From Escherichia coli 042 (lineage in GTDB: Bacteria > Pseudomonadota > Gammaproteobacteria > Enterobacterales > Enterobacteriaceae): a stretch of DNA of 64,000 nucleotides. A program made the translations under genes and the position numbers. The notes under the pieces are model-generated. The model did not search any database and had not been told where the DNA came from. It was given only the letters and a program-made list of their open reading frames with translations. Shown here piece by piece: positions 31,264-31,422 of the stretch. Numbering within the stretch: the stretch's first letter is position 1; every line of letters starts with the position of its first letter. The stretch is from the NCBI RefSeq assembly GCF_000027125.1, contig NC_017626.1, one strand, 5' to 3'.

Positions 31264-31296
31264 ACGAAAAACCCCGCCCGGTTTGCGCCGGCGGGG
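31264..31296 (-). terminator. ilvBN attenuator terminator
   Basis: Minus strand reads ccccgccggcgcaaaccgggcgggg followed by tttttcgttt, between ivbL and the ilvB start. Confidence 0.8.
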
Positions 31297-31323
31297 TTTT
31301 GGAATCGTGTGTTGTTCCAGTCC

Positions 31324-31422
31324 CTACGGCGCATTGCCGACGACCACCACCACACGCACGACGACCACTGCGGCGGATGGCGCAGTTGGTAGTAGTTTTG
31401 CGTTGAGCATGGAAGTAGTCAT
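31324..31422 (-). CDS. ivbL: ilvBN operon leader peptide (Val/Leu-rich, 32 aa)
   Basis: Hand translation of the reverse complement: MTTSMLNAKLLPTAPSAAVVVVRVVVVVGNAP*. Confidence 0.9.
   Translation of the reverse strand: MTTSMLNAKLLPTAPSAAVVVVRVVVVVGNAP

Follow-up and report, generated by a model that had tools for sequence, protein, structure and literature searches.

The ivbL leader and probable ribosome-mediated attenuator of the ilvBN operon in Escherichia coli 042

We found that positions 31264–31422 of the window (i.e. the whole 64,000-nt stretch of Escherichia coli 042 DNA that was analysed) very probably carry the ivbL leader and the ribosome-mediated transcription attenuator of the ivbL-ilvBN operon, which would sense charged tRNA-Val and tRNA-Leu. 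The element is already known and its sequence is ordinary, matching that of K-12 base for base. Sequencing and characterisation of the ivbL attenuator, a classical regulatory element, date from the early 1980s. Among the new results, an RNA-level function of ivbL is best supported by the invariance of its synonymous sites, which are far more conserved across genera than those of ilvB, a direct sign of selection at the RNA or codon level.

The leader ORF runs from 31422 to 31324 on the minus strand, with the ATG at 31422, 32 codons and the UAG at 31326–31324, as established by translation, family models and the RefSeq annotation, in which it is named ivbL. Its translation is the 32-aa peptide MTTSMLNAKLLPTAPSAAVVVVRVVVVVGNAP. 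An earlier note on this DNA had claimed a 32-aa leader, and the ORF bears this out: the peptide matched Pfam PF08049 (IlvB_leader) over residues 1–32 of 32 (72.6 bits, cutoff 25, E = 2e-20) and the NCBIfam equivalog NF007579 (‘ilvB operon leader peptide IvbL’; 78.7 bits, cutoff 60, E = 2e-22). The leader, with its stop at 31324, lies directly upstream of the ATG of the regulated gene at 31218 on the same strand. This gene is ilvB (29530–31218, minus strand), encoding the large subunit of acetolactate synthase I, and it is followed by ilvN (29236–29526, minus strand), encoding the small subunit; both ORFs matched equivalog models (NF006016, 1084.9 bits, cutoff 870; NF006036, 185.8 bits, cutoff 128). 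The entire feature (leader, terminator, ilvB and ilvN) is thus on the minus strand, as are all the leader elements described below. The strand had been left unstated previously, although the interval given, 31264–31422, runs exactly from the leader ATG to the U-tract. The proposed ilvBN attenuation arrangement agrees with what we observed, an IvbL family member directly upstream of ilvB and ilvN equivalogs, with a leader identical to that of K-12. No match to the Rfam 15 leader families was found at E ≤ 1 in the region 30500–32500, where the only significant match was istR, upstream of ivbL; this absence does not count against the identification of ivbL.

The leader region 31450–31219 is 100% identical to that of E. 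coli K-12 MG1655. In a 498-nt comparison, the two sequences differed only at 31547, 31541, 31539, 31200 and 31123. The first three positions lie between the istR terminator and the ivbL promoter and the last two are in ilvB, where the change at 31200 produces Thr7Ser (MASSGTSST vs MASSGTTST). The best identity to any complete E. coli genome was 99.1% over 571 nt. By megablast, 5418 of the 5426 complete E. coli genomes carry a single copy of the locus, with the annotations ivbL and ilvB, and the neighbouring genes (uhpA, ilvN, ilvB, ivbL, tisB, ysdE, emrD and yidF) match the E. coli chromosome. There is accordingly no leader difference from the K-12 ivbL-ilvBN attenuator (Friden, Newman & Freundlich 1982; Hauser & Hatfield group 1983–85), which has the same peptide, terminator and downstream genes.

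That identity allows published physiology to be brought to bear. A GFP reporter study describes ivbL as 32 codons of which 12 are Val plus Leu, and found repression by Val and Leu and not by six other amino acids (PMC11187965). Passages of PMC3783181 and PMC11347164 credit Val/Leu-responsive attenuation in K-12 to Friden et al. 1982 and Hauser et al. 1985. Because the K-12 leader sequence is identical, the reported Val/Leu response supports attenuator physiology here.

The program-made list of open reading frames also contains two ORFs on the plus strand, of 69 aa (31197–31406) and 165 aa (31202–31699), and either might be the real gene, with the minus-strand leader incidental. We consider this extremely improbable. 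Neither ORF is annotated in RefSeq E. coli records; the 165-aa ORF would run antisense across the ilvB start, ivbL and istR, the last of which scores 150 bits in Rfam on the minus strand; and it is the minus-strand ORF that matches curated IvbL models. On annotation and context alone, both plus-strand ORFs were rejected as presumably spurious.

Counting the 32 codons of ivbL gave nine Val codons, the number previously reported, and three Leu codons (codons 6, 10 and 11) rather than two. The Leu codons are CUC at codon 6 and a CUA-CUA pair at codons 10–11 (31390–31395), and only the CUA-CUA pair is conserved in other genera. CUA is the rarest Leu codon of E. coli. The pair, presumed regulatory, is invariant in nine of nine taxa, third base included. 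The regulatory Val run occupies codons 19–28 (31339–31368; GUG GUC GUC GUG CGU GUG GUG GUG GUC GUC), i.e. blocks of four and five Val codons split by an Arg codon, and its synonymous sites were nearly invariant in the nine taxa.

We examined conservation in a nine-sequence alignment, comprising this locus and eight orthologous loci that include those of Escherichia albertii, Enterobacter and Pluralibacter. All eight orthologous loci have an ilvB homologue with the leader ∼100 nt ahead of it. Between the start of the Val run and the end of the terminator the alignment was almost invariant, and the 5′ UTR, the N-terminal codons and the region past the U-tract varied. We then compared codons whose amino acid is four-fold degenerate (V, A, G, P or T) and conserved in all nine taxa. 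The third base was invariant in 11 of 16 such codons in ivbL; the corresponding figure for ilvB in these nine genomes was 9 of 87 (Fisher p = 2e-6). Therefore, ivbL is constrained at the level of RNA or codon choice, beyond its peptide sequence.

A protein homology search, in which the query was the 42-aa in-frame extension of the leader, retrieved 51 IvbL variants. The core LL.TA.SAAVVVVRVVVVVGNAP was conserved in Escherichia, Enterobacter and Pluralibacter, and the first nine residues were variable. Some of the variation is in the Val run itself. A 10-nt direct repeat, GTGGTCGTCG, occurs at 31368–31359 (codons 19–22) and 31347–31338 (codons 26–29) on the minus strand, with the copies 21 nt apart, and slippage between them would account for natural IvbL length variants in the protein database. 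Forms of 25 aa with only three Val residues (P0043, P0046, P0048 and P0051) are found in E. coli and Shigella sonnei, in 3 to 55 contigs each, and one 39-aa form (P0008) carries the duplication; further variants are R23C and losses of single Val residues. A synthetic query spanning the deletion junction did not separate deletion variants from normal genomes, which also give a match, in two adjoining parts. In the natural 21-nt slippage variants most of the Val run is either lost or doubled, and ilvBN regulation could be altered as a result in some E. coli and Shigella lineages. A scan of genome contigs with GTNGTNGTNGTNNNNGTNGTNGTNGTNGTN gave at least 120 unrelated loci, mostly high-G+C or archaeal, and was rejected as far too unspecific.

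The intrinsic terminator (the attenuator) is at 31300–31262 and consists of an A-tract, a 9-bp G+C stem with one bulge, a 6-nt loop and a U-tract. As a whole it reads AAAACCCCGCCGG-CGCAAA-CCGGGCGGGG-UUUUUCGUUU and folds with −21.1 kcal/mol, upholding the strong hairpin described in the earlier note. Its parts are the A-tract at 31300–31297, the 5′ arm CCCCGCCGG at 31296–31288, the loop CGCAAA at 31287–31282, the 3′ arm CCGGGCGGGG at 31281–31272 with one bulged G, and U5-CG-U3 at 31271–31262. Owing to the bulge, the hairpin escaped a simple terminator scan. The terminator begins 23 nt past the ivbL stop codon, and its last U is 44 nt from the ilvB start at 31218, so the description ‘immediately before ilvB’ is a fair one. 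The consensus fold retained the terminator in nine of nine orthologs. Sub-threshold Rfam matches on the plus strand to STnc310 (21.4 bits against a threshold of 40) and P6 were rejected, as they are the same terminator hairpin read from the opposite strand.

A competing antiterminator can be folded at 31333–31284. It pairs UGCGCCG (31333–31327) with CGGCGCA (31290–31284) and GGG (31324–31322) with CCC (31295–31293), and encloses an inner hairpin at 31319–31300. At −21.1 kcal/mol its energy equals that of the terminator, from which it takes six of the nine bases of the 5′ arm. The two structures are mutually exclusive and nearly isoenergetic, the states differing by 0.2 kcal/mol in the isolated switch segment. 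The antiterminator 5′ strand (31333–31322) takes in the final two sense codons, the UAG and the next two bases. Since it overlaps the end of the peptide and the stop codon, a ribosome finishing the peptide would block the antiterminator.

In the untranslated RNA, a further structure, the protector, sequesters this same strand. The 5′ strand of its closing helix, GGUCCC (31425–31430), adjoins the Shine-Dalgarno (SD) sequence of ivbL and pairs with GGGACU (31324–31319). The 3′ side of the protector (31319–31339) comprises this GGGACU strand and a small hairpin, CGGC (31339–31336) with GCCG (31330–31327). The closing helix was present in the minimum free energy (MFE) structure of the free transcript at lengths of 135 to 163 nt and at full length. 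On free RNA, the protector forms once 31316 has been transcribed, lasts to ∼31288, keeping the antiterminator strand occupied. We infer the exact pairings of both antiterminator and protector, and the kinetic sequence of steps, from the folding models.

Conservation of these helices in the nine taxa was high. The antiterminator outer helix was 98.9% paired, with 8 of its 10 pairs never varying, and the one compensatory change in the antiterminator was located in the inner hairpin. As the stems are nearly invariant, covariation is uninformative on the antiterminator. The protector closing helix was 90.7% paired, with one pair varying between GC and GU, and the small CGGC/GCCG hairpin was 100% paired and invariant. 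Taken with the upstream helices, the protector was 82.5% paired and showed two compensatory pairs. We also observed an 8-mer, GGACUGGA, at 31323–31316 (just past the ivbL stop) and again at 31228–31221 (in the ilvB SD region), both on the minus strand. The first copy varies among the nine taxa whereas the second does not, and the consensus fold pairs the SD-proximal GGUCC of ivbL with the second copy. The recurrence is probably due to chance; it could link initiation of ilvB translation to the leader structure.

The 189-nt leader had an MFE of −71.4 kcal/mol (z = −3.29), and none of 200 dinucleotide shuffles was as good. To represent translation, the ribosome was modelled as a 30-nt footprint mask at each codon. 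In the full-length leader at equilibrium, the terminator was present wherever the mask was placed, as would be expected of a switch under kinetic control. Folding at full length is therefore uninformative on a kinetic switch, and the attenuation model depends on kinetics; this question was approached instead with 3′-shortened transcripts and with the energies of forced states.

In transcripts ending before the terminator 3′ arm, the antiterminator formed with the ribosome at codons 1–26, weakened at codons 27–28 and was absent at the stop. With forced states, the antiterminator strand was free with the ribosome at Leu10–11 or Val19–24, whereas any ribosome position from codon 26 to the stop excluded the antiterminator sterically. 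The energy of the antiterminator state minus that of the terminator state was +4.5 kcal/mol for free RNA (i.e. terminator favoured), +2.2 to +3.4 kcal/mol with the ribosome at Val19–24, and −0.1 to +1.4 kcal/mol with the ribosome at Val20–24 and the start site also occupied. On the assumption of a 30-nt footprint, a stall at Val codons 26–28 would cover the antiterminator strand. In a ribosome-free transcript of 165–169 nt the MFE structure switched to the antiterminator. Taken literally, this switch predicts read-through without translation, and termination would then require a kinetically persistent protector.

These results best support the following, classical model. Transcription would start near 31448, and the 32-codon leader would be translated as the polymerase approaches the terminator at 31300–31262. 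When Val and Leu are ample, the ribosome would reach the UAG at 31326–31324 and its footprint would cover UGCGCCGUAGGG (31333–31322), the antiterminator 5′ strand. With this strand covered, the terminator would form and transcription would end at ∼31267–31262, before ilvB. Were the ribosome to stall at the CUA-CUA Leu pair, or within the first two-thirds of the Val run, the antiterminator strand would be left free and the SD-proximal protector open. The freed strand would then pair with the terminator 5′ arm and loop (31295–31284) before the 3′ arm is made, allowing the polymerase to read on into ilvBN. When the RNA is not translated, the protector (GGUCCC:GGGACU plus CGGC:GCCG) would form first and hold the antiterminator strand, favouring termination.

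The ivbL attenuator might instead use another antiterminator, in which the G-rich strand of the Val run, GGUGGUGGUCGUCGG (31350–31336), pairs with the C-rich terminator 5′ arm and becomes available on an early stall at the Leu codons. The MFE structure does join the terminator 5′ arm to the Val region with the ribosome at codons 29–32, and in several orthologs it still makes this pairing with the ribosome masked at the stop codon. A pairing role for the RNA would also explain the synonymous-site invariance of the Val run, and the shuffled sequences indicate that many G-rich upstream strands can pair with the terminator arm. However, during a stall at the Val codons the ribosome encloses the Val run, which rules this run out as antiterminator for the main signal. 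The strand 31333–31322 is, moreover, also invariant, including its GCG and CCG synonymous sites, and sits exactly where a terminating ribosome would cover it. We therefore regard pairing by the Val run as unlikely and prefer the antiterminator whose 5′ strand is at 31333–31322.

The foldability of this antiterminator was not above chance. When the 50 nt upstream of the terminator 5′ arm were shuffled with dinucleotide composition preserved, 300 of 1000 sequences folded as stably, and 133 of 1000 also paired as many bases of the terminator arm. G-rich Val codons and a C-rich terminator arm make alternative pairings easy. The absence of any foldable alternative had been put forward as grounds for refuting the attenuator; an antiterminator that excludes the terminator can be folded, although this is a weak test, since 13–30% of shuffles score equally. 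In G+C-rich leaders, where shuffled sequence often passes, the ability to fold an antiterminator thus discriminates poorly. Synonymous-site invariance in ivbL (p = 2e-6) favours this particular pairing only indirectly.

Both the chance-level foldability and the finding that the terminator is always the equilibrium structure would also fit a plain, unregulated terminator of a short transcript or small-protein gene, with ilvBN served by its own downstream promoter. However, the U-tract and the ilvB ATG are just 44 nt apart, and the promoter scan gave no promoter-like site there. Without attenuation it would be hard to explain why the ORF is rich in Val and Leu codons, why the rare CUA-CUA pair is invariant and why the synonymous sites are constrained, and the identical K-12 sequence is reported to be Val/Leu-responsive (PMC11187965). 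In addition, Term-seq detected a 3′ end, ‘ivbL_t’, and classed the terminator as weak and prone to read-through (PMC9023263). A plain terminator is thus very improbable, and attenuation by the ivbL leader is the reading that we retain.

A putative promoter of ivbL-ilvBN was read from the sequence. A candidate −10 hexamer, TATAAA, lies at 31455–31460; the −35 region is poor and the candidate was absent from the output of a consensus promoter scan. The transcript would start near 31448–31445, giving a leader RNA of ∼180–187 nt. We also observed a candidate CRP-like half-palindrome, CGTGATCAACCCCTCA, at 31513–31528 (minus strand), with three mismatches and centred ∼72 nt upstream of the putative start. 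At that stringency, matches to the CRP consensus in the window were not above chance (237 vs 222 expected). The CRP-like site would fit the cAMP control that Friden et al. 1982 name in their title.

The 5′ UTR is CA-rich at 31447–31431 (ACACAAAACCAACAA) and is followed by the SD sequence AAGG at 31432–31429. It was CA-rich in all nine orthologs, and its composition is of the kind bound by the sRNA GcvB; it is a plausible predicted GcvB pairing region. In the literature, GcvB is listed as targeting ivbL at a predicted site close to the AUG, and RNase E sites are placed between ivbL and ilvB (PMC11347164). The protector helix GGUCCC/GGGACU both occludes the SD region of ivbL and holds the antiterminator strand. 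It is a tentative and rather doubtful suggestion that GcvB, at the CA-rich 5′ UTR, opens the SD-occluding protector helix and so sets the frequency of leader translation or, alternatively, that abundant terminated leader RNA acts as a GcvB sponge. If the first of these is true, a classical ribosome-mediated attenuator would also be under the influence of an sRNA.

In each of the leaders ilvL, leuL, trpL, hisL, thrL and pheL, regulatory codons are clustered in a short ORF, and ribosome position gates a pairing that is the alternative to an intrinsic terminator. The ivbL element shares this logic of ribosome-mediated attenuation with ilvL of ilvGMEDA (Lawther & Hatfield 1980) and with leuL, trpL, hisL, thrL and pheL, a class discussed in PMC3783181 and PMC1183508. 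It differs from these six in its peptide family (PF08049) and in having regulatory codons for Val and Leu only, with none for Ile. Our folds set ivbL apart from the ilvL/leuL/trpL class in two further ways: its Val run makes up the 3′ half of a large hairpin upstream, and its antiterminator 5′ strand includes the stop codon, whereas in that class this strand lies well beyond the stop. The ilvBNC leader of Corynebacterium glutamicum (three-hairpin model, PMC11857589; ilvB-II motif, PMC10272879) is likewise uORF-dependent, responsive to branched-chain amino acids and upstream of an acetolactate synthase operon. Compared by description, however, it has an unrelated sequence, a different operon (ilvBNC) and a host from a different phylum, and is an analogue rather than a homologue.

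Several other elements were observed in the window. The sRNA istR, antitoxin of the tisB type I toxin-antitoxin system, is at 31552–31681 on the minus strand (Rfam RF01400, 150 bits, full model), and ends in its own terminator, in the same orientation as ivbL and ∼100 nt short of the ivbL promoter. The tisB toxin ORF (29 aa, MSLVDIAILILKLIVAALQLLDAVLKYLK) is at 31987–32076 on the plus strand. Between tisB and istR, at 31733–31752, there is a perfect LexA-box-like palindrome, TACTGTTTATTTATACAGTA (1 match vs 0.02 expected by chance). Further away, a giant ORF of 3806 aa at 3271–14691 (minus strand) encodes an inverse autotransporter of the intimin/invasin type (IAT_beta, E = 3e-109), with Big_1 and Invasin_D3 repeats and Invasin_D4 at the C-terminus. 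Inside this ORF, a tandem array at 5439–11238 contains 19.9 copies of a 291-bp unit at 87% identity.
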